This document shows, piece by piece, positions 17,845-60,007 of a stretch of 64,000 nucleotides of DNA (position 1 is its first letter; every line of letters begins with the position of its first letter). This DNA comes from an uncultured Bacilli bacterium. GTDB taxonomy: Bacteria; Bacillota_I; Bacilli_A; RF39; UBA660. The notes beneath the pieces are model-generated. The model was not told the origin of the DNA, searched no databases, and saw only the letters and a list, made by a program, of their open reading frames with translations. The position numbers and the translations under genes are program-made. The DNA lies in assembly GCA_934122395.1 (NCBI GenBank), contig CAKOWQ010000003.1, forward strand, positions 37,141-101,140, in the 5' to 3' direction.

Positions 17845-17921
<77 letters not shown>

Positions 17922-18951: not shown

Positions 18952-19028
18952 GGCCGACTTAGCTCAGTTGGTAGAGCAACTCATTCGTAATGAGTAGGTC
19001 GTAGGTTCAAGTCCTATAGTCGGCACCA
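18952..19028 (+). tRNA. tRNA-Thr (anticodon CGT)
   Basis: Acceptor gccgac.../...gtcggc, D arm agctcagttggtagagc, anticodon stem actca/tgagt with loop tTCGTAa, T loop ttcaagt, encoded CCA. TTGATA-17-TATAAT promoter at 18917-18945. Confidence 0.85.
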
Positions 19029-35295: not shown

Positions 35296-35505
35296 TTAGA
35301 AATCGAAGATTGAGATTAGTAAGTTTTTAATTATTTTATAGAGAATTAGTGGTTGGTGGAAACTAATAATAATATTACTGAATCAACTCATGAGTGAAAT
35401 AGGGAAATTTAAGTATCTATTTCCGGGATGACCGTTATTTAAATTAAGTCAATTATAGGATGGCACCGTGATTATTCACTCCTATACTTGGCTTTTTTAT
35501 TTTTT
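35296..35505 (+). promoter_or_regulatory. T-box leader (candidate Ser specifier TCA) controlling the HD-GNAT-serS operon
   Basis: AGAGA box (tatagagaatt), distal loop GGTGGAAAC and GAA-TCA-A in the specifier position (TCA at 35383-35385). F-box ccgtta is at 35432-35437. The T-box sequence aattataggatggcaccgtg is at 35451-35470, followed by a tatagga/tcctata helix and T-runs. Confidence 0.75.
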
Positions 35506-39320: not shown

Positions 39321-40343
39321 ATGGAAGAAATTAAAGCAAGTAGAATTAATGGGCGACTTGATTTAGATGAATATTTTAGTCAAAGAGGAGTGCCTAATTG
39401 TGTAGATCTAGAAGAATTAGCAAGCAAAGGATTAATAGAACCAGAAATATCAGGAATATGTGATAAATTTTGGATATTATCTAGTGATAATAACGAACGT
39501 ATTGCATTATTTAAAGTATCAGAAGCAAACTCTTATGCTGATTATGCTGAACTTTTAGCTGAGGAAATGGCTAAAGTTATGGAAATAAAAACCGCACATT
39601 ATGATTTGGCAACGTTTAATGGAATGAATGGAGTTATAAGTTATAATTTCTTAGATGAGTATGATTCCATATATCATGGTACGGATATTATATTAGATTA
39701 TTATGATGAAAAAATAGAGGATAGTGCAGAGCTTTTATCGATGTATGGCTTAACTAGTAAAGATTTAATTGATGATGTTTGCCTTAAATTAAATAACTTA
39801 GAAGATATATGGTCAATTATAGAACATAAATATAAAGATTATAATAATAAAAGTGGAATCGTTAAACGCGTTATGGACGGATTAGTTGACAAATTAATTT
39901 TTGATGTTTTGACTAATAATGTTGATGACCATTCAGAGAATTGGGGTATTATTGATACTGATTCTGGAAAATATCTAGCCCCAATGTATGATAATAGTAG
40001 AATTTTAGGACTTTATAAAAATGTTGTTGTAGAAAAGGCATTAAGGCAAAAGCAAGACGAGGAGTCACCTTTATATTTGACTGTTGATAATTCTAGTGAT
40101 AAATATCCAGCGGAAGTATTAGATAAATTTTTACGTATTTCTAGTAGTGAATACGTTGATTTAGTAAAAGAAAAAATATCTTTGTTACAGGAACACGTAT
40201 GTGAAATTCCAGAAATGGTTGAAGCACGTACTGGTGTACAAATGAGTGATTTCTTAAAAAGATATTTTAATGAGTCTATCGCAAACAATTTAGAAACTGC
40301 TAGTACAATAGTAGATAAATATGATAGAAAACGTGCTAAATAA
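39321..40343 (+). CDS. HipA-like Ser/Thr kinase domain protein
   Basis: The catalytic-loop-like VLTNNVDDHSENWGII and LAPMYDNS resemble the HipA_C motifs (NxDDHxxN ... aPxYD). The ATG is 1 nt after the galE stop. Confidence 0.6.
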   Translation: MEEIKASRINGRLDLDEYFSQRGVPNCVDLEELASKGLIEPEISGICDKFWILSSDNNERIALFKVSEANSYADYAELLAEEMAKVMEIKTAHYDLATFNGMNGVISYNFLDEYDSIYHGTDIILDYYDEKIEDSAELLSMYGLTSKDLIDDVCLKLNNLEDIWSIIEHKYKDYNNKSGIVKRVMDGLVDKLIFDVLTNNVDDHSENWGIIDTDSGKYLAPMYDNSRILGLYKNVVVEKALRQKQDEESPLYLTVDNSSDKYPAEVLDKFLRISSSEYVDLVKEKISLLQEHVCEIPEMVEARTGVQMSDFLKRYFNESIANNLETASTIVDKYDRKRAK

Positions 40344-40431: not shown

Positions 40432-41121
40432 ATGTATTCAAAAGAAGTAGAGGACATGTGTACTGTGAATAAAGGTGCTAATCATGGACCAGCTCCTATA
40501 CCTGAAGAAGGAAAGTTTGTTGAGGCTAAAGAAATAAAAGATATTTCTGGACTTACTCATGGTATAGGTTGGTGTGCGCCACAACAAGGTGCTTGTAAAT
40601 TGACACTTAATATTAAAAATGGAATTATAGAGGAAGCTTTAGTAGAAACAGTAGGTTGTTCAGGAATGACTCATTCAGCTGCTATGGCTTCAGAAATATT
40701 AGTAGGTAAAACATTGCTTGAAGCATTAAATACTGACTTAGTTTGTGATGCTATTAATACTGCAATGAGAGAATTGTTCTTACAAATAGTCTATGGTAGA
40801 AGTCAATCGGCTTTCTCAGAGGGGGGGTTACTAGTAGGAGCAGGACTTGAAGATTTAGGTAAAGGACATCGTAGTCAAGTTGGTACTTGTTACAGTACTA
40901 AATTAAAAGGTCCTAGATATCTAGAATTATCTGAAGGATATATTACAGAAATAGGATTAGATGAAAATAATGAAATCATTGGATATAAGTATGTTAACTT
41001 AGGTAAGATGATGGATAATATAAAAAAGAAAATGGAGCCGCTAGAAGCAATTGAAAAAGCTAGTGGTAAATATGGAAGATTCGATGAAGCAGTAAAAGTA
41101 ATCGATCCAAGGGAGGAGTAG
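40432..41121 (+). CDS. NifU/IscU-like Fe-S scaffold-domain protein
   Basis: GWCAPQQGACKLTLNIKNGIIEEALVETVGCSGMTHSAAMASEIL has the three-Cys layout of the NifU_N/IscU fold. It is followed 2 nt later by the GGGtGRT gene. Confidence 0.65.
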   Translation: MYSKEVEDMCTVNKGANHGPAPIPEEGKFVEAKEIKDISGLTHGIGWCAPQQGACKLTLNIKNGIIEEALVETVGCSGMTHSAAMASEILVGKTLLEALNTDLVCDAINTAMRELFLQIVYGRSQSAFSEGGLLVGAGLEDLGKGHRSQVGTCYSTKLKGPRYLELSEGYITEIGLDENNEIIGYKYVNLGKMMDNIKKKMEPLEAIEKASGKYGRFDEAVKVIDPREE

Positions 41122-41123
41122 TT

Positions 41124-42125
41124 ATGGCATTATTTGAAAATTATGATAGAAGAATTAAACAAATAGAAGCTACTCTAAATAAGCATGGAATTGCTACTAT
41201 AGAAGATGCTAAAAAAATATGTGAGGAAAAAGGTATCGATGTTTTTGAAATAGTAAGAGGTATTCAACCAATTTGTTTTGATAATGCTTGTTGGGCATAT
41301 ACGGTAGGTGCTGCTATTGCAATAAAAGAAAATGCTAAAACAGCAGCAGAAGCAAGTAAGTATATCGGAGAAGGTTTACAATCTTTTTGTATCCCAGGAA
41401 GTGTTGCTGATGAGAGAAAAGTTGGATTAGGTCATGGTAATTTAGGTGCTATGTTATTAAGTGAAGATACAGAGTGCTTTGCATTCTTAGCAGGACATGA
41501 ATCTTTTGCAGCAGCAGAAGGAGCTATAGGTATTGCAAAATCTGCTAATAAAGTAAGACAAAAACCATTAAGAGTAATACTTAATGGATTAGGTAAAGAT
41601 GCTGCTCAAATAATTTCTAGAATAAATGGATTTACTTTTGTAGAGACTGAATATGATTTTGCAACTTCTACTTTAAAAATAGTTAGTGAGAAAGCTTATT
41701 CTAATGGTGAGCGAAGTAAAGTAAAATGTTATGGAGCTAATGATGTAAGAGAAGGCGTTGCTATAATGCATCATGAAAATGTTGATGTATCTATTACAGG
41801 CAATTCAACTAATCCTACAAGATTCCAACATCCAGTAGCAGGTACTTATAAAAAAGAAAGATTGGAGCAAGGTAAAAAGTATTTTTCAGTAGCAAGTGGT
41901 GGAGGAACTGGTAGAACACTTCATCCTGATAATATGGCTGCTGGACCTTCTAGTTATGGTATGACAGATACAATGGGTAGAATGCATAGTGATGCTCAAT
42001 TTGCTGGTTCTTCTTCAGTCCCTGCTCATGTAGAAATGATGGGATTAATAGGAATGGGGAATAATCCAATGGTTGGTGCTACTGTAGCAGTAAGTGTAAA
42101 AGTATTTGAAACTTTAAATAAATAA
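41124..42125 (+). CDS. GGGtGRT family protein (uncharacterised)
   Basis: Contains the family-defining SGGGTGRTLHPDN motif. The 333-aa length matches my recollection of the Pfam GGGtGRT family at about 330 aa. Confidence 0.75.
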   Translation: MALFENYDRRIKQIEATLNKHGIATIEDAKKICEEKGIDVFEIVRGIQPICFDNACWAYTVGAAIAIKENAKTAAEASKYIGEGLQSFCIPGSVADERKVGLGHGNLGAMLLSEDTECFAFLAGHESFAAAEGAIGIAKSANKVRQKPLRVILNGLGKDAAQIISRINGFTFVETEYDFATSTLKIVSEKAYSNGERSKVKCYGANDVREGVAIMHHENVDVSITGNSTNPTRFQHPVAGTYKKERLEQGKKYFSVASGGGTGRTLHPDNMAAGPSSYGMTDTMGRMHSDAQFAGSSSVPAHVEMMGLIGMGNNPMVGATVAVSVKVFETLNK

Positions 42126-43628: not shown

Positions 43629-44726
43629 ATGAAAGTTTTATTATATACAGAAGGACTTGAACATATTGGTAAAAGTGGTTTAGGAAAAGCTATTAAGCAT
43701 CAAATGAAAGCATTAGATTATGTAGGTGTTAGTTATACACTTGATCCAGATGATGATTATGATATAGTTCACATTAATACATATGGGCCAAAATCTTTTG
43801 CACTAGCTCAAGCATCTAAGAAAAATGGTAAAAAAGTAGTATACCACGCACATTCTACAGAAGAGGATTTCAGAAATAGTTTCGTTTTATCAAATCAAAT
43901 TGCACCAATATTTAAAAAATGGATTGTTACTTGTTACAAATTAGGAGATCATATTATAACTCCAACACCATATTCTAAAAAGTTATTGGATGGTTATCAT
44001 ATGCATAGAGATATTACTGCTATATCTAATGGTATTGAAATAGAAAGATTTGTAACTGATAAAAAATTAGGAGATATTTTTAGAAAAACATATGGATATA
44101 AAAAGAATGATAAAGTAGTAATGGGAATCGGGTTATATTTAGAAAGAAAAGGTATATTAGACTTCGTAGAACTTGCAAAAAGATTACCACAATATAAATT
44201 TATTTGGTTTGGTTTTACTCCTTTATATACAGTTCCTGATAAGATTAGAAAAGCAGTTAAGACTGAGCTTTCAAATTTAACTTTTGCTGGATATGTTGAA
44301 CAAGAAATGATTATAAATGCTATGAATGGAGCAGATTTATATATATTCCCAACACTAGAAGAGACTGAGGGTATTCCAATACTAGAAGCATGTGCTTGTA
44401 AAGAAAAAGCATTAATTAGAGATATTCCAGTTTTTGATGAATGGTTAGAAGATGGAGTTAATGTATATAAAGCAAAAGATGTAGATGAGTTTGAAAAGAA
44501 AATTGTTGATATTTTAGAAGGGAAGTTACCTGATTTAACTGAAGAAGGTTATAAAGTAGCTTGTTCAAGGGATTTAAGAATTATTGGTAAACAATTGAAG
44601 GAAGTTTATGAAAAAGTCTTAGAAAATCCTGCAATAGATAAGAAGGAAAGTAGAAAAAGAGATAAAGAATTCCGTAATAAGCAAAGGGAAGATAGAAAAA
44701 AACTAAAAGAAACAATAAAAAAATAA
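43629..44726 (+). CDS. GT4-family (GT-B fold) glycosyltransferase with a Lys/Arg-rich C-terminal tail
   Basis: E-x7-E motif region PTLEETEGIPILEA. The N-terminal GKSGLGKAI is typical of glycolipid or sugar-transfer GT4 enzymes. Confidence 0.7.
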   Translation: MKVLLYTEGLEHIGKSGLGKAIKHQMKALDYVGVSYTLDPDDDYDIVHINTYGPKSFALAQASKKNGKKVVYHAHSTEEDFRNSFVLSNQIAPIFKKWIVTCYKLGDHIITPTPYSKKLLDGYHMHRDITAISNGIEIERFVTDKKLGDIFRKTYGYKKNDKVVMGIGLYLERKGILDFVELAKRLPQYKFIWFGFTPLYTVPDKIRKAVKTELSNLTFAGYVEQEMIINAMNGADLYIFPTLEETEGIPILEACACKEKALIRDIPVFDEWLEDGVNVYKAKDVDEFEKKIVDILEGKLPDLTEEGYKVACSRDLRIIGKQLKEVYEKVLENPAIDKKESRKRDKEFRNKQREDRKKLKETIKK

Positions 44727-44749
44727 TGACTAGAAATAGTCATTTTTTT
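44726..44749 (+). terminator. Rho-independent terminator after the GT4 gene
   Basis: atgacta-gaaa-tagtcat followed by T7. Confidence 0.8.
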
Positions 44750-44750
44750 A

Positions 44751-44781
44751 TTGCCAAATCCCTAGGGGGGGGGGGTATAAT
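44751..44781 (+). promoter_or_regulatory. Candidate sigma-A promoter whose spacer contains a G11 tract
   Basis: TTGCCA (44751-44756), a 19-nt spacer aatccctaGGGGGGGGGGG, then TATAAT (44776-44781). It lies 34 nt upstream of the ATG at 44815. Confidence 0.5.
44765..44775 (+). repeat. Homopolymeric G11 tract
   Basis: Counted directly: 11 consecutive G residues. It is the only long G/C homopolymer I saw in this AT-rich window. Confidence 0.95.
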
Positions 44782-44814
44782 AATTATAGATAAATATAAT
44801 TCGGAGTGAGAAGG

Positions 44815-46272
44815 ATGGAAAAGAAGTATATGAAAGCCAAAAAGATTATAGTTATAACGATGTGTACCTTAATATGTATAATGGCAATAGGATATGCAGC
44901 GTTTGCAACTAATTTAACAATAACAGGAACATCAAATATAGGGTCAACTTGGAAAGTAGAATTTACTAATATTGAGGAAGTATCAAAAACAAGTGGAGTA
45001 ACAATAAAAAACGTACCAACAGCAACAGGAACAACAGCAACTTTTAATGTAGATTTAACAAGTCCAGGAGACAATATAGTCTACAAAATAACAGTAGCAA
45101 ATAATGGAACATTAAATGCAGTAATAGATGATATAACAGCAAGTGAAACCGGAAGTGATGCAATAAATTTTGAAATAATAGGGATAAAGAAAGGAGATAA
45201 ATTAGCAAGTAAAACAACAACAACATTTGATGTAACAATATCATATGATAACAATGTAACAAGCCAACCTAATTTAATAGATAGTACATTAACAATAAAT
45301 ATTAATTATGTACAAGATACAGGACAAACGATAGTAACAGATGATACTATAATAGTACCAACAAGACTAGCAGCAAAAATATTGAAAGACAATGAAGCAC
45401 AAGCGGATACAAGTATAGATTTTTCTAAGATAAGTAGTGATACAAATGGTAAAGGATTATATTATACAAGTACCAATACCGAAGATAATAAAGTAACATA
45501 TTATTTTAGAGGCGCAGTAGAAAACAACTATGTAACATTCGCAGGATTTACATGGAGAATAATAAGAATAAATGAAGATGGTTCAATAAGATTAATAAAA
45601 CAAGATTCGATAGGAGATAGTGCATTTAATATAAACGTATTTGACAATGCATATGTAGGATATATGTATGGAATGGCTGGAGCTTCAACATATGAAGAGA
45701 CACATGCAAATACTAATTCGAGTACAATAAAGACTTTTATAGATGAATGGTATCAAAATAATTTAATAAGTTATTCAAGTTATTTAGCTGATTTTGGATT
45801 CTGTGGTGATAGGAGTATAACCGATGGTTGGGAATTTGATGACTATGATTCTGAGATAGATACTCTATATTCAGCATACACTAGATTAGCAGAAAACAAA
45901 ACTCCACAGTTCAAATGTCCTCAAGCAAACGATTTATATACAACCAAGACGAGTAATAAAGGTAACAAAGCTCTAGATTATCCAATAGGATTAATAACAG
46001 CGGATGAAGTAACATATGCAGGGGCTAGTTATCCGAAAGATAACAATAATTTATATTTAGCATCATTGGTTCAAATTAATTCTTGGACAATGACTCCATT
46101 TAATTATTATGGCGGTGTTACTTTATATTTTTGGTCTTGTAATGGTTATTTAGGTGATGATGCTGTTGATCCTGGAAATGAGGTAAACCCTGTAATAAAT
46201 CTAAAATCAACAATAGAAATTACAACTGGCGATGGAACTGTTGATAATCCATATGTAATTAAAACTAATTAA
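44815..46272 (+). CDS. Secreted or surface protein with a TasA/camelysin-like N-terminal region and a large C-terminal domain
   Basis: Signal/anchor KKIIVITMCTLICIMAIGYAAFATNL; the YAAF resembles the SipW-type signal of TasA/camelysin. It is followed by LTSPGDNIVYKITVANNGTLNAVID (TasA-like PGD...N.G.L block) and YYFRGAVENNYVTFAGFTWRIIRINEDGSIRLI. The ATG at 44815 is 8 nt after GGAG. Confidence 0.6.
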   Translation: MEKKYMKAKKIIVITMCTLICIMAIGYAAFATNLTITGTSNIGSTWKVEFTNIEEVSKTSGVTIKNVPTATGTTATFNVDLTSPGDNIVYKITVANNGTLNAVIDDITASETGSDAINFEIIGIKKGDKLASKTTTTFDVTISYDNNVTSQPNLIDSTLTININYVQDTGQTIVTDDTIIVPTRLAAKILKDNEAQADTSIDFSKISSDTNGKGLYYTSTNTEDNKVTYYFRGAVENNYVTFAGFTWRIIRINEDGSIRLIKQDSIGDSAFNINVFDNAYVGYMYGMAGASTYEETHANTNSSTIKTFIDEWYQNNLISYSSYLADFGFCGDRSITDGWEFDDYDSEIDTLYSAYTRLAENKTPQFKCPQANDLYTTKTSNKGNKALDYPIGLITADEVTYAGASYPKDNNNLYLASLVQINSWTMTPFNYYGGVTLYFWSCNGYLGDDAVDPGNEVNPVINLKSTIEITTGDGTVDNPYVIKTN

Positions 46273-46281
46273 AGAAGATGA

Positions 46282-47412
46282 TTAATAATATTTCATCTTC
46301 TTTTCTTTGGTATTATAAATATTTAAAAGTAATCCAGTTAATATCATATAAGATAATAAACTACTTCCACCATAACTTATAAAAGGTAGAGTAATACCTG
46401 TTATAGGTAACATTCCTATAGTCATACCTATATTTTGTATTTGCTGATATAAAAAAATGCTTAAAATACCTACAGTTATATACTTATCTATTCTATTTAC
46501 AGTAACTTTTCCTAGTTTAGTAATATTAATATCAAATATAAAAATGACAATTATTAGAAAGAGTGAACCAATTAATCCAAAATTGGAAGCATATACCGAA
46601 AATATAAAATCAGTTCCGGCTTCTGGAAAATATAGAGGAGTTTTATTAAAACCGTGTCCTGTTATATAACTAGAACCTATAGCAGCTAGTGAGTTTTCTA
46701 ATTGCATTCCACTACCAATTTTCCAATTAATAATTCGATCCATTCGATAGAAAAAATTACTACCAAAAATACTAATAAATAAATCTTGTTTTAAAAAGTA
46801 TAAATAGAAAAATATGCCACCGATTATAGAAATAATAATAGCTAATAATAAATACCAAAAAAGGCTTATACCGCTTATAAATAACATACTTAATGTAATA
46901 ATAAAATAAATTATTACTGCACCTGTATCTGGTTCTAAAAACGTTAAAACACTAGGAATCATTACTATAAAAAATACTTTAATTAATAAAACAAATTCAT
47001 CTTTTAACTTTGGCTTTTTATTATTCAAGTGAAAACTATCTAAAGTTTTAGCTAATATTAAAATAAGAGATATTTTCATGAATTCACTAGGTTGAATACT
47101 ACCAATACCTTTTATTATGTACCAACATTTACTACCGTTAATATCTGGTGCTACAAAAAGTAGTCCAGCTAATAAAATTACGTTAATTAAATATATATAC
47201 CAAGCATATTTATAGAAAAAGTTATTCTTGGTTTTGATAATAATTATTATTACTATTATACCTATTAGATACCATAAGCTTTGTTTTAGTGCCAGATTAC
47301 CTAAAGTAGGTGATAAATACATTGATGCAGAGTATATAGATATTACACTTATTATAAAAAATATTGATATACATATAACAGTTGTCTTATCTAATTTGAA
47401 TTTTCTTTTCAT
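46282..47412 (-). CDS. SEDS family peptidoglycan polymerase (FtsW/RodA/SpoVE)
   Basis: Ten-TM profile with conserved blocks GSKCWY...IQPSEFMKI, EPDTGA and LPITGITLPFISYGGSS. Confidence 0.88.
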   Translation of the reverse strand: MKRKFKLDKTTVICISIFFIISVISIYSASMYLSPTLGNLALKQSLWYLIGIIVIIIIIKTKNNFFYKYAWYIYLINVILLAGLLFVAPDINGSKCWYIIKGIGSIQPSEFMKISLILILAKTLDSFHLNNKKPKLKDEFVLLIKVFFIVMIPSVLTFLEPDTGAVIIYFIITLSMLFISGISLFWYLLLAIIISIIGGIFFYLYFLKQDLFISIFGSNFFYRMDRIINWKIGSGMQLENSLAAIGSSYITGHGFNKTPLYFPEAGTDFIFSVYASNFGLIGSLFLIIVIFIFDINITKLGKVTVNRIDKYITVGILSIFLYQQIQNIGMTIGMLPITGITLPFISYGGSSLLSYMILTGLLLNIYNTKEKKMKYY

Positions 47413-47844: not shown

Positions 47845-47867
47845 GAAAAAAAGACCATAGGTCTTTT
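47845..47867 (-). terminator. Rho-independent terminator for the minus-strand cotY/Z-like pair
   Basis: On the minus strand: aaaagacc-tat-ggtctttt followed by T-runs. Confidence 0.75.
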
Positions 47868-48282
47868 ATACTCCACTTATGTATGTATCACCTAAACATT
47901 TTATTGCACCAATACATTTTAAGTTAATAGTGAAATAATCATTAGTAGCTACATAAGGATAGGTTTCTTGCTCTTCAGTATTAGGATTTGGTGCTAATAC
48001 TCTAAATGTTGCACAATTATCATCTAAGTTTTCAATTCTAAATACTGTACTTGTTCCTGGTGTTCCATTTAATGTATAAGGCATTGTCCATAATGTGTTA
48101 TTGCAACAACTGTACAATGAAATAGGTCTTGTATTTAAACATACATTATTTAAAATAGGTCCTAGGAAAGGTTTACTACATCCATTTTCTACATCACATA
48201 CTTCTCCTTTTTGTTGAAGCATAAGAATTAGTTCTAGTGTTTTGATAAAAGAACAAGAGCATTCATTATTGTTTCCACACAT
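47866..48282 (-). CDS. CotY/CotZ (ExsY)-family cysteine-rich spore coat/crust protein, copy 2
   Basis: Family pattern: N-terminal C.C..IKTLELI..LQ, then CLNTRPI, FRIENLDDNCATFRVL, and a C-terminal INLKCIGAIKCLGDT. This compares with B. subtilis CotY/Z C.C..V..IL..Q ... FFRVE.L.D.CATL..L ... VDL.CFCAIQCL. Confidence 0.75.
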   Translation of the reverse strand: MCGNNNECSCSFIKTLELILMLQQKGEVCDVENGCSKPFLGPILNNVCLNTRPISLYSCCNNTLWTMPYTLNGTPGTSTVFRIENLDDNCATFRVLAPNPNTEEQETYPYVATNDYFTINLKCIGAIKCLGDTYISGV

Positions 48283-48299
48283 TTTTTCTTCCCCCTTTC

Positions 48300-48710
48300 T
48301 TATAAATCAACTATAGTATCGCCTAAGCATTTTATTGCACATACGCATCCTAAATTAATAGTAGCTGTATTTCTAGTAGTTATATATGGCCTAGTTGTAT
48401 CTGTTGTATCTGGATTTGCAATAAGAATAGATACTACTACACATCCGTCATCAACTTTTTCAATTCTAAATATGCTGCTTCTACCAGTACTTGCTTCACC
48501 ATTTATAGTTGTAGAATAATCAAGTTCTATTAAATTATTGTTACATCCATAGAAAGTTATAGGTCTAGTGTTTAAGCATAGAGTAGGTACTTCTACTCCT
48601 AAAAATGGTCTATTACATGTATTATCAAAACATTCATCTTTTTCAGCACTGCGTTGTAAAAGATCGATTATTTTTAATGTTTTAGTAAAACAACAACAAT
48701 TTTCACCCAT
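48300..48710 (-). CDS. CotY/CotZ (ExsY)-family cysteine-rich spore coat/crust protein, copy 1
   Basis: A paralog of 47866-48282 with the same blocks: CCCFTKTLKIIDLLQ, CLNTRPI, FRIEKVDDGCVVV, INLGCVCAIKCLGDT. It is separated from copy 2 by 17 nt that contain only an SD. Confidence 0.75.
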   Translation of the reverse strand: MGENCCCFTKTLKIIDLLQRSAEKDECFDNTCNRPFLGVEVPTLCLNTRPITFYGCNNNLIELDYSTTINGEASTGRSSIFRIEKVDDGCVVVSILIANPDTTDTTRPYITTRNTATINLGCVCAIKCLGDTIVDL

Positions 48711-48903: not shown

Positions 48904-50481
48904 ATGAAGAAGTATTTAATTATTATGTCGTTTTTATTTTTAATTTTACCAGGAAGTGTTTATGCATCTAGTTTGAAATTAAATTGTGATAGTACTAATG
49001 TAGCGGGGAATGTATTATCTTGTGGTATGTCACTTACACTTGATGAAGATGTTACTTATAATAAATTGGAAGCAGTTATTAAAGTAGATAATTCTTCAAG
49101 TATAACTTTTGAAGCAAAAAATGGTGTTGATGCTACTATTAATAATAATAATCTTGTTATTAATGGTGCTAATGTTACTGATTTTGGTAGTTTAAAAATA
49201 AAGTTTCCTAGTGAGGCTTCTGGTAGTAAAAATATAACGGTATCAGCATTAAAACTTTATAATGATGATAATTTAGTGGCGTCTTTAGATGATGCTGTTA
49301 GTAAAGTTAATGTAAAGTCTAGTGTTAATACATTAAAATCTTTAAGTGTTAGTAATTGCGATAATTGTACGATGAGTCCTTCATTTAAAAGTAATACAAC
49401 TGTTTATATTGTATATACTAAATCTAATAAAATTACTATATCAGCAAGTGCTAATGGTAGTGCTAAAGTAATAGGCGCAGGTACTAAGAATTTAACTAAA
49501 GATAGTGAAACTTTTAAAATAACAGTTACTTCAGAATCTGGTAGTTCAAAAGTATATAAAGTAATTGTAAACAAAGAGAAAAGCAATGATATTTCATTAG
49601 CTAGTTTAACTATAGATAAAGGAACATTATCTCCTACGTTTTCTAGAAGTGTAACTAGTTATTCTGCTGTGGTTGATAGTGATAAAGTAGTTATAAAAGC
49701 AACTGCAAGTGATACTAGTGCTAGTGTATCTGGTACAGGTGAAAAATCATTAGAATATGGAAGAAATGAATTTACTGTTACTGTAACTGGTAATAATGGA
49801 AATACTAAAAATTACTTAATTACAATTTCTAGACCAGATACAAGAAATGCCAATGCTTATTTAAAATCGTTAACTATAGATGGTAAAGATATAGAATTCG
49901 AAAAAGATATTGTTGAATATGAGTACAAAGTTGGTAAGAATGTTGATAGTCTTGATATAAAAGCAGTACCTGAACTTGAATCTTCAAAAGTAGAAATATC
50001 TGGTAATGAAAAATTTCAATTGGGTAAGAATACTGTAACTATAACAGTAAAAGCAGAAGATAATAGTGAAAAAGTTTATAAAATTATTGTCATAAAAGAG
50101 GAGAACGTTTCAGACGATCTTTATTTGGATAATTTAAAAATTAAAGGATATGACATTAATTTTGATAAAGAAAAATTTGAATATACTTTGAAAATAAAAA
50201 ACGAAAAGGAACTTGATATTATAGCTTTTGCCAGTAATGGGTACAAAACTGAAATTGTTGGTAATGAAAGTTTAAAAGATGGCAGTATAATTAAAATAAT
50301 TGTTAGTGATGAAGATGGAAATAGTAATATTTATAAAATAAAGATAGAAATGGATAATAACGAAGTATCATCTAGTAGTAGTGATGGTATTAACTATATT
50401 CCTTATATTATGACTAGTTTATTAGTTATATTGTTTATACTAGATTTAATACAAGTTATAAAAAGATTGCGTAATAAATAG
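48904..50481 (+). CDS. Membrane-anchored surface protein: N-terminal beta-rich module, four cadherin-like beta-sandwich repeats and a C-terminal TM anchor
   Basis: Signal peptide (LFLILPGSVYA|SS). Four repeats of about 85 aa start L(K/A/D)(S/N)L(S/T/K)(V/I) and end VYK(V/I)IV.KE, YLITISR or IYKIKIE (nt 49324-50349). The C-terminal anchor is IPYIMTSLLVILFILDLIQVIKRLRNK. Confidence 0.7.
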   Translation: MKKYLIIMSFLFLILPGSVYASSLKLNCDSTNVAGNVLSCGMSLTLDEDVTYNKLEAVIKVDNSSSITFEAKNGVDATINNNNLVINGANVTDFGSLKIKFPSEASGSKNITVSALKLYNDDNLVASLDDAVSKVNVKSSVNTLKSLSVSNCDNCTMSPSFKSNTTVYIVYTKSNKITISASANGSAKVIGAGTKNLTKDSETFKITVTSESGSSKVYKVIVNKEKSNDISLASLTIDKGTLSPTFSRSVTSYSAVVDSDKVVIKATASDTSASVSGTGEKSLEYGRNEFTVTVTGNNGNTKNYLITISRPDTRNANAYLKSLTIDGKDIEFEKDIVEYEYKVGKNVDSLDIKAVPELESSKVEISGNEKFQLGKNTVTITVKAEDNSEKVYKIIVIKEENVSDDLYLDNLKIKGYDINFDKEKFEYTLKIKNEKELDIIAFASNGYKTEIVGNESLKDGSIIKIIVSDEDGNSNIYKIKIEMDNNEVSSSSSDGINYIPYIMTSLLVILFILDLIQVIKRLRNK

Positions 50482-59931: not shown

Positions 59932-60007
59932 GGGGCATTAGCTCAGCTGGGAGAGCGCCACGTTTGCACCGTGGAGGTCAGCGGTTCGATCCCGCTATGC
60001 TCCACCA
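59932..60007 (+). tRNA. tRNA-Ala (anticodon TGC)
   Basis: Acceptor ggggcat/atgctcc including the G3:U70 identity pair. D arm agctcagctgggagagc, anticodon stem ccacg/cgtgg with loop tTTGCAc, T loop ttcgatc, encoded CCA. Confidence 0.9.

Follow-up and report, generated by a model that had tools for sequence, protein, structure and literature searches.

The window analyzed here is a 64,000-nt stretch of assembly GCA_934122395.1 (contig CAKOWQ010000003.1, positions 37,141–101,140, forward strand; 27.8% G+C), which contains a run of eleven G residues (G11, 44765–44775) in the spacer between the -35 and -10 hexamers upstream of a gene for a 485-aa protein. Our analyses point to this tract as a likely site of slipped-strand promoter-spacer phase variation at a sigma-A-type promoter, in a large family of paralogs dispersed through the genome. 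Under this proposal, slipped-strand mispairing in replication would add or remove a single G, and each 1-bp step would shift the -35 relative to the -10 hexamer by about 34 degrees. Promoter strength would be altered such that transcription of each paralog could be switched in a heritable and reversible way, independently of the others. The C-terminal half of the genes would vary further through segmental recombination, as a second layer of sequence variation.

The elements on which this proposal is based are as follows, with positions given in the window.

43629–44726, plus strand: gene for a GT4 glycosyltransferase of the IagA/BgsA family (lipoteichoic acid glycolipid anchor); NCBIfam NF053513, E = 3.6e-150; Pfam Glycos_transf_1 and Glyco_transf_4.
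44725–44749, plus strand: intrinsic-terminator-like hairpin (inverted repeat) and U-run, with an 8-bp stem and a GAAA loop.
44751–44756, plus strand: -35 hexamer TTGCCA, a 5/6 match to TTGACA.
44757–44775, plus strand: promoter spacer aatccctaGGGGGGGGGGG, 19 nt (aatcccta followed by G11).
44765–44775, plus strand: G11 homopolymer, the proposed slipped-strand switch.
44776–44781, plus strand: -10 hexamer TATAAT, abutting the G tract, about 33 nt 5' of the ATG.
44795–44800, plus strand: second TATAAT, judged non-functional as a -10.
44803–44806, plus strand: Shine-Dalgarno GGAG, 8 nt 5' of the ATG (cGGAG is kept in the cassettes).
44815–46272, plus strand: gene for the 485-aa protein, with its ATG at 44815 and its stop codon at 46270–46272.
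46272–46305, no strand assigned: hairpin AAGAAGATGA/TCATCTTCTT with a T-rich tail, read from the sequence between convergent gene ends; probably a bidirectional terminator.

The anatomy described in the original prediction, namely TTGCCA, a 19-nt spacer holding the G11, and TATAAT, was found in full at these positions. The putative promoter reads TTGCCA-19-TATAAT, with the terminator directly 5' of it and GGAG and ATG at the proper distance. The glycosyltransferase gene ends with a TAA at 44724–44726 and is a marker of the locus that lies outside the switch. The hairpin that follows it has arms AAUGACUA/UAGUCAUU at 44725–44732 and 44737–44744 and a T-run to 44749, and its predicted RNA fold has a free energy of -9.4 kcal/mol (z = -4.6 versus shuffled sequences). 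Comparable small hairpins precede the cassettes in four of the related loci (L085, L089, L101 and L140), and the terminator-like hairpin of the window is predicted to insulate the promoter downstream of it. A scan for consensus promoters and terminators reported neither element, because its own rules exclude both: spacers of only 16–18 nt are allowed, and at least three G-C stem pairs are needed.

Uninterrupted and 11 nt long, the tract exceeds the roughly 9 G/C residues taken as the minimum for slippage. It is the sole G/C run longer than 7 in the 64-kb window, consistent with the earlier claim that no other long one was present; the next longest are a G7 (40821–40827, within a coding sequence) and a C5. 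The number of G/C runs of at least 11 expected by chance is between 2e-4 (order 0) and 5e-4 (first-order Markov) per window. The G7 (apart from it and the G11, no G run exceeds 5 nt) lies in an open reading frame (ORF) at 40432–41121 (NifU-like; labelled GGGtGRT-family) that adjoins 41124–42125. It encodes Gly-Gly, was the same in L093 and showed no sign of variability.

If transcription began instead from the second TATAAT (44795–44800), the tract would lie outside any spacer, a scenario that the original prediction had named as fatal to its own proposal. This scenario failed, as the second hexamer is not conserved (L005, L090, L096 and others) and has no -35 partner, while the first TATAAT was unchanged in all 21 of the tabulated cassettes. 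In addition, a transcript from the second hexamer would begin at or after the GGAG, removing the Shine-Dalgarno sequence.

Tract lengths, all of which are assembly consensus calls, were compared at identical loci in eight assemblies for the window locus, three for a locus at secA and seven for a locus at P0089. At the window locus the tract was G11 in seven assemblies (the window, ERZ1749067, ERZ15609718, ERZ28613879, ERZ27287108, ERZ27286970 and ERZ28613985) and G12 in the eighth, ERZ27287105 (L190), which matched the window at every position of the 2000 nt upstream and the 540 nt downstream. The secA locus had tracts of G11, G11 and G12, again with no mismatches, over 1949 + 1751 nt. For the paralog downstream of P0089 the tracts were 11, 10, 10, 12, 11, 11 and 10 nt long, and the 2542 nt upstream differed at only 0–1 positions. 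The length heterogeneity that the original prediction had anticipated was therefore seen across assemblies, as G11/G12 at the window locus and G10–G12 at the paralog loci. That the tract is the only variable site over kilobases is the pattern expected of a simple sequence repeat (SSR) with a greatly elevated indel rate. An interrupted tract, G5AG5, located upstream of P0089 on the same contigs and about 1.6 kb from the pure tract, was invariant in 7/7.

Single-base indels were also observed in nearby A/T runs, one in the tail of the terminator (tagtcATTTTTTT for the window, tagtcTTTTTTT for L189:4950–4965) and another in intergenic DNA just past the GGGtGRT gene (L184/L186 near position 497), indicating that AT homopolymers vary between strains as well.

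We consider it extremely improbable that the tract arose through an error of sequencing or assembly, such as the poly-G produced by two-colour Illumina chemistry. One locus does have that appearance: contig L159 begins (positions 1–90) with G-rich sequence (…GGGGGGTGGTGGTGGGGGT followed by G18) fused to a normal TATAAT cassette, and this G18 is probably a two-colour poly-G artefact extending a real tract. L159 was left out of the tract-length statistics. The window tract, by contrast, is internal, has conserved flanks and was reproduced in at least eight independent assemblies from several projects and assemblers, which refutes an artefactual origin, and tracts were also found at more than 30 paralog loci. 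Moreover, the seven concordant G11 calls, some of them from contigs with 5–10x coverage, argue that miscalls of tract length are rare.

The second line of evidence is the recurrence of the cassette throughout a gene family. A locus search with the single protein gave only three distant relatives; the family itself came within reach only with a search based on an alignment, which identified 412 relatives across a handful of gut "Bacilli" metagenome-assembled genomes (MAGs). One MAG (CAKPHC01) had at least 12 family loci and another (CALVYA01) at least 25, many of them with the cassette. These copy numbers are underestimates because the paralog family, and perhaps its tract heterogeneity, fragments MAG assemblies; contigs very often begin or end in or just 5' of family genes (L088, L131, L133–L135, L143, L147, L185–L187 and many more). 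The genomic neighborhoods of the paralogs are unrelated: secA, a thioredoxin gene, a prepilin peptidase gene or ylbE may precede them, and others are arranged as tandem pairs. Even so, they have a common upstream unit: a small terminator, TTG(A/C)(A/C)A, 7–8 nt, G10–13, TATAAT, about 24 nt, GGAG and ATG. In more than 30 paralog cassettes the -35 position is kept as TTGCCA, TTGCAA or TTGAAA, 7–8 nt 5' of the G tract. Unique pure tracts were G10 in 11 contexts, G11 in 11, G12 in 10 (including L190) and G13 in one, and their spacers of 17–20 nt (mode 18–19) are set by the tract length.

In the 1.2 Mb of related loci that were fetched, TATAAT stood directly 3' of 36 of the 45 unique runs of at least seven G residues. 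Runs of at least nine within 110 nt upstream were found for 29/88 family ORFs versus 1/723 non-family ORFs (Fisher p = 2.7e-29), and in the same comparison the upstream tracts were always poly-G on the sense strand, with no poly-C. Together with the lengths across assemblies, this recurrence lends strong support to what had first been proposed from the window alone, namely that the -35/-10 spacer of a gene for a secreted, variable protein holds a G tract prone to slippage. Searches with the cassette itself returned little: the exact pattern with a variable gap had no match in species-representative genomes, a degenerate version picked out just two cassettes within the closest MAG, and its only match in Joint Genome Institute (JGI) metagenomes was a 52,785-nt contig (L001).

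Two further G tracts were noted. In L004 (position 1510) an 839-aa relative is preceded, at 93 nt, by a G9, and its leader contains a terminator-like hairpin. In L045 (position 6200) a G12 stands about 100 nt 5' of the ORF for a secreted protein outside the family, which has a signal of the same style at its N-terminus (…GVSVYGTYAMFTSS…). Other secreted-protein genes of the clade may also be marked by poly-G tracts.

Some cassettes carry interrupted tracts at the same promoter position (G5TG6, G5AG5, G5AG6, G4AG7, G4TG7, gggaggagggg and G7tgg; L006, L101/L176–L182, L113, L115, L118, L119, L136 and L175), with spacers of 18–20 nt, and these copies are presumably "locked" derivatives. In L102, L103 and L108 the tract has decayed to mixed sequence and the spacers are 17–18 nt, which would fit the canonical spacing optimum that the pure-tract copies straddle at 17–20 nt. 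A different arrangement was found in a distant relative in MAG CALVOC010000061.1 (L002:1234–3146), where a G11 occupies codons 11–14 and the gene encodes a 23-aa stub as assembled. With G9 or G12, the same gene would encode a protein of 636/637 aa with a signal peptide. L002 is therefore a candidate for translational phase variation, a translational form of the same strategy.

The interrupted tracts bear on an alternative that we regard as unlikely, in which the G-rich spacer is a fixed element that tunes promoter strength or binds a regulator, and the differences of one nucleotide are neutral drift or technical noise with no switching. The persistence of interrupted tracts of the same length (G5AG5, G4AG7 and G5TG6) before intact genes suggests selection on spacing or G-richness and not on mutability, and G11 in 7/8 assemblies at the window locus also suits a fixed element. 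So too does an 8-bp palindrome, CCCTAGGG, at the 5' edge of the tract in one cassette subgroup; however, the palindrome is missing from the TTGAAA..cct and ..ccgat subgroups, and it was rejected as a general operator on this basis. A fixed element would also have to account for pure tracts of at least 10 G residues that, in a genome of 26–30% G+C, are restricted to one promoter position of one family, for length being the sole polymorphism over kilobases at three loci, and for the poly-G of L002, which can be in frame or out of frame.

Evidence for recombination was found in the coding regions. The allele in L189 (5023–6534), at the same locus as 44815–46272, is a 503-aa mosaic with 93–100% identity to the window over the first 800 nt and 48–84% identity, with indels, over the last 700 nt. 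In L176–L182, from about position 2620, the paralog behind an identical cassette has two forms, of 548 and 573 aa, whose sequences diverge from about codon 13 onward. At this P0089 locus the upstream DNA is identical in seven assemblies before both versions of the gene, which suggests that coding sequences could be exchanged behind a constant promoter and leader. Based on the L189 mosaic and the two gene versions at P0089, we consider that segmental recombination diversifies the C-terminal domain.

These same observations, together with cassettes that are far more conserved than the coding sequences behind them, could be taken to mean that the cassette and its G tract are a site of homology or initiation for recombination, giving antigenic variation by gene conversion with expression switching secondary or absent. 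We find this explanation distinctly improbable. The breakpoints observed in both cases are inside the coding region, away from the tract, and the explanation does not account for a pure homopolymer that fills the spacer exactly and abuts the -10, nor for spacers that stay at 17–20 nt. It is also compatible with promoter-spacer phase variation and is no replacement for it.

The original prediction held that a 19-nt spacer makes a poor promoter and a spacer of 17–18 nt an optimal one. This is plausible, since tract-less copies have spacers of 17–18 nt, but the consensus lies at 18–19 nt and the locked copies at 18–20 nt. With pure-tract copies spanning 17–20 nt as well, the spacer distribution does not single out an ON length, and G11 at the window locus could correspond either to low or no expression or to an ON state that is tolerated.

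Several points weigh against phase variation as the explanation of the tract. A simple rule of 17 = ON and 19 = OFF is a misfit to the consensus spacers (mode 18–19) and to intact locked paralogs at 19–20 nt. The window tract itself is largely constant, at G11. Because the lengths are consensus calls, they do not show heterogeneity within a population directly and may include some homopolymer miscalls; the invariant G5AG5 control cannot separate the technical from the biological cause, since an interruption lowers both kinds of slippage alike. Mindful of these points, we infer that the TTGCCA and TATAAT hexamers are the promoter in use, that changes in tract length would alter transcription and that switching would be frequent within the population.

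The 485-aa protein has more than 4600 homologs in metagenomes, and Pfam and NCBIfam searches found no curated family for it. The only matches were weak ones, to a DUF11-type repeat (E = 1.2e-3, below the cut-off) and to choice-of-anchor D. In the family alignment the N-terminal half is conserved and the C-terminal half has hypervariable segments between conserved blocks, ending in a conserved ...PVINLKS..GDGT..NPYVIKTN. An AlphaFold2 model of moderate confidence (predicted local distance difference test, pLDDT, 70) has an N-terminal helix (residues 3–32), an immunoglobulin (Ig)-like sandwich (about 48–167) and a C-terminal alpha/beta domain. Foldseek returned no match in the PDB at E<=1e-3, the best being generic Ig-like sandwiches, and a PDB sequence search gave nothing specific. 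The protein is predicted to be secreted or surface-anchored, with the N-terminal hydrophobic helix as its signal or anchor. By eye, the N-terminus reads MEKKYMKAKKIIVITMCTLICIMAIGYAAFA followed by T, with conserved cysteines C17 and C21 that have no lipobox context and are too near the N-terminus; the possibility of a lipoprotein was rejected because there is no lipobox. For in-frame tandem repeats in the gene (44815–46272), Tandem Repeats Finder (TRF) gave only a 19-nt, two-copy match.

The original prediction had also likened the N-terminus to TasA/camelysin-type substrates of SipW. The protein does share with TasA and camelysin (Peptidase_M73) a signal-like N-terminal helix followed by a beta-sandwich, and a loosely similar G-Y-A-A-F motif where the hydrophobic region ends. 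However, the resemblance did not hold in the searches: there was no Pfam match (E<=1) and no NCBIfam match (E<=10, N-terminal 168 aa), thus no match to hidden Markov models of Peptidase_M73/TasA or of the SipW-cognate signal, and no TasA was among the structure matches of the pLDDT 70 model.

The genes neighboring the locus are chromosomal housekeeping and sporulation genes (galE, the GGGtGRT protein gene, sigG and rodA/ftsW). The nearest relatives of the glycosyltransferase are from uncultured gut MAGs of Hadza and other humans, rabbit, goat and sheep, labelled as Bacilli, Tenericutes, Mollicutes or Erysipelotrichaceae. A relative that has been named, Ca. Faecenecus, is placed in GTDB order RF39, family CAG-611 (PMC8035907); this order, like RFN20 and ML615J-28, is uncultured and related to Mycoplasmatales (PMC10868615). 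The window organism appears to belong to these uncultured Bacilli orders. Just beyond rodA, at 47866–48710 (minus strand) and 48904–50481 (plus strand), are two CotZ-like spore-coat ORFs next to each other and a 525-aa protein with a cadherin-like domain, their Pfam labels being taken from the identical locus L187. The presence of sigG and the CotZ-like ORFs suggests that the host may be able to sporulate. Elsewhere in the window we noted, at 39321–40343 and directly 3' of galE, a protein of 340 aa whose kinase domain is HipA_C-like (E = 6e-10), a T-box leader (RF00230, 97 bits) at 35297–35486, and genes for tRNA-Arg(TCT) at 17845, tRNA-Thr(CGT) at 18953 and tRNA-Ala(TGC) at 59932.

Phase variation by SSRs has been reviewed in general, and is documented mainly in pathogens (PMC11868660). 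In the full-text literature searches made, no account emerged of this family or of phase variation among RF39/RFN20-type Bacilli. The kind of mechanism proposed here is well known; the family, the lineage, the scale (dozens of dispersed poly-G cassettes) and the commensal setting were not found described. If the proposal is correct, a commensal lineage would have a large multi-locus SSR "phasome", which bears on whether multi-locus SSR variation is truly restricted to pathogens (PMC11868660). Antigenic variation by homopolymer promoters might then be ancestral to, or repeatedly evolved in, the radiation related to Mycoplasmatales, and not a specialty of wall-less pathogens. This would have been revealed from metagenome assemblies alone, in a gut commensal lineage without cultured members. 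Tract length at each paralog would be a testable marker of surface switching in populations from gut metagenomes of humans (Hadza among them), rabbits and ruminants, and the variable family is a candidate target of pressure from host immunoglobulin A or phages. There is also a warning for MAG annotation, as family genes break contigs and some relatives would be frameshifted by design; annotation would take a gene of the L002 type for a pseudogene or for an ORF truncated at its N-terminus.

Among known systems, the intragenic poly-G contingency genes of Campylobacter jejuni resemble the family in having tracts of 9–13 nt in genes for surface structures of an AT-rich genome. The distant relative L002 matches that type exactly, whereas the tracts of the window and most paralogs are in the promoter and not the coding sequence. 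In Neisseria meningitidis, porA (poly-G) and opc (poly-C) have spacer tracts of about 9–14 nt whose 1-nt steps give graded or ON/OFF expression. These genes share with the window a G/C homopolymer that fills the -35/-10 spacer, but they are single genes of a Gram-negative pathogen and not a paralog family with one cassette, and G11 in porA gives a 17-bp spacer compared to 19 bp here.

In mycoplasmas, indels in spacer homopolymers switch vlp, maa2 and vmm (PMC2268961). In the Vlp system of M. hyorhinis each gene has a conserved promoter in which slippage of a homopolymer between the -35 and -10 turns that gene ON or OFF independently of the others (PMC2268961, citing Citti and Wise 1995). The window family is similar in being a multigene family of predicted surface proteins with a conserved, homopolymer-bearing putative promoter for each gene, and in a host lineage that appears related to Mycoplasmatales. 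It differs from Vlp in having poly(G) in place of poly(A), in proteins that have neither a lipobox nor in-frame tandem repeats for size variation, and in dozens of genes dispersed singly where the Vlp genes are clustered. Unlike mycoplasmas, the window host is walled and has sporulation genes (sigG, CotZ-like). We give about even chances to the proposition that RF39-like gut Bacilli run a Vlp-like combinatorial surface variation, in which independent poly-G switches are combined with mosaic recombination of the C-terminal regions.

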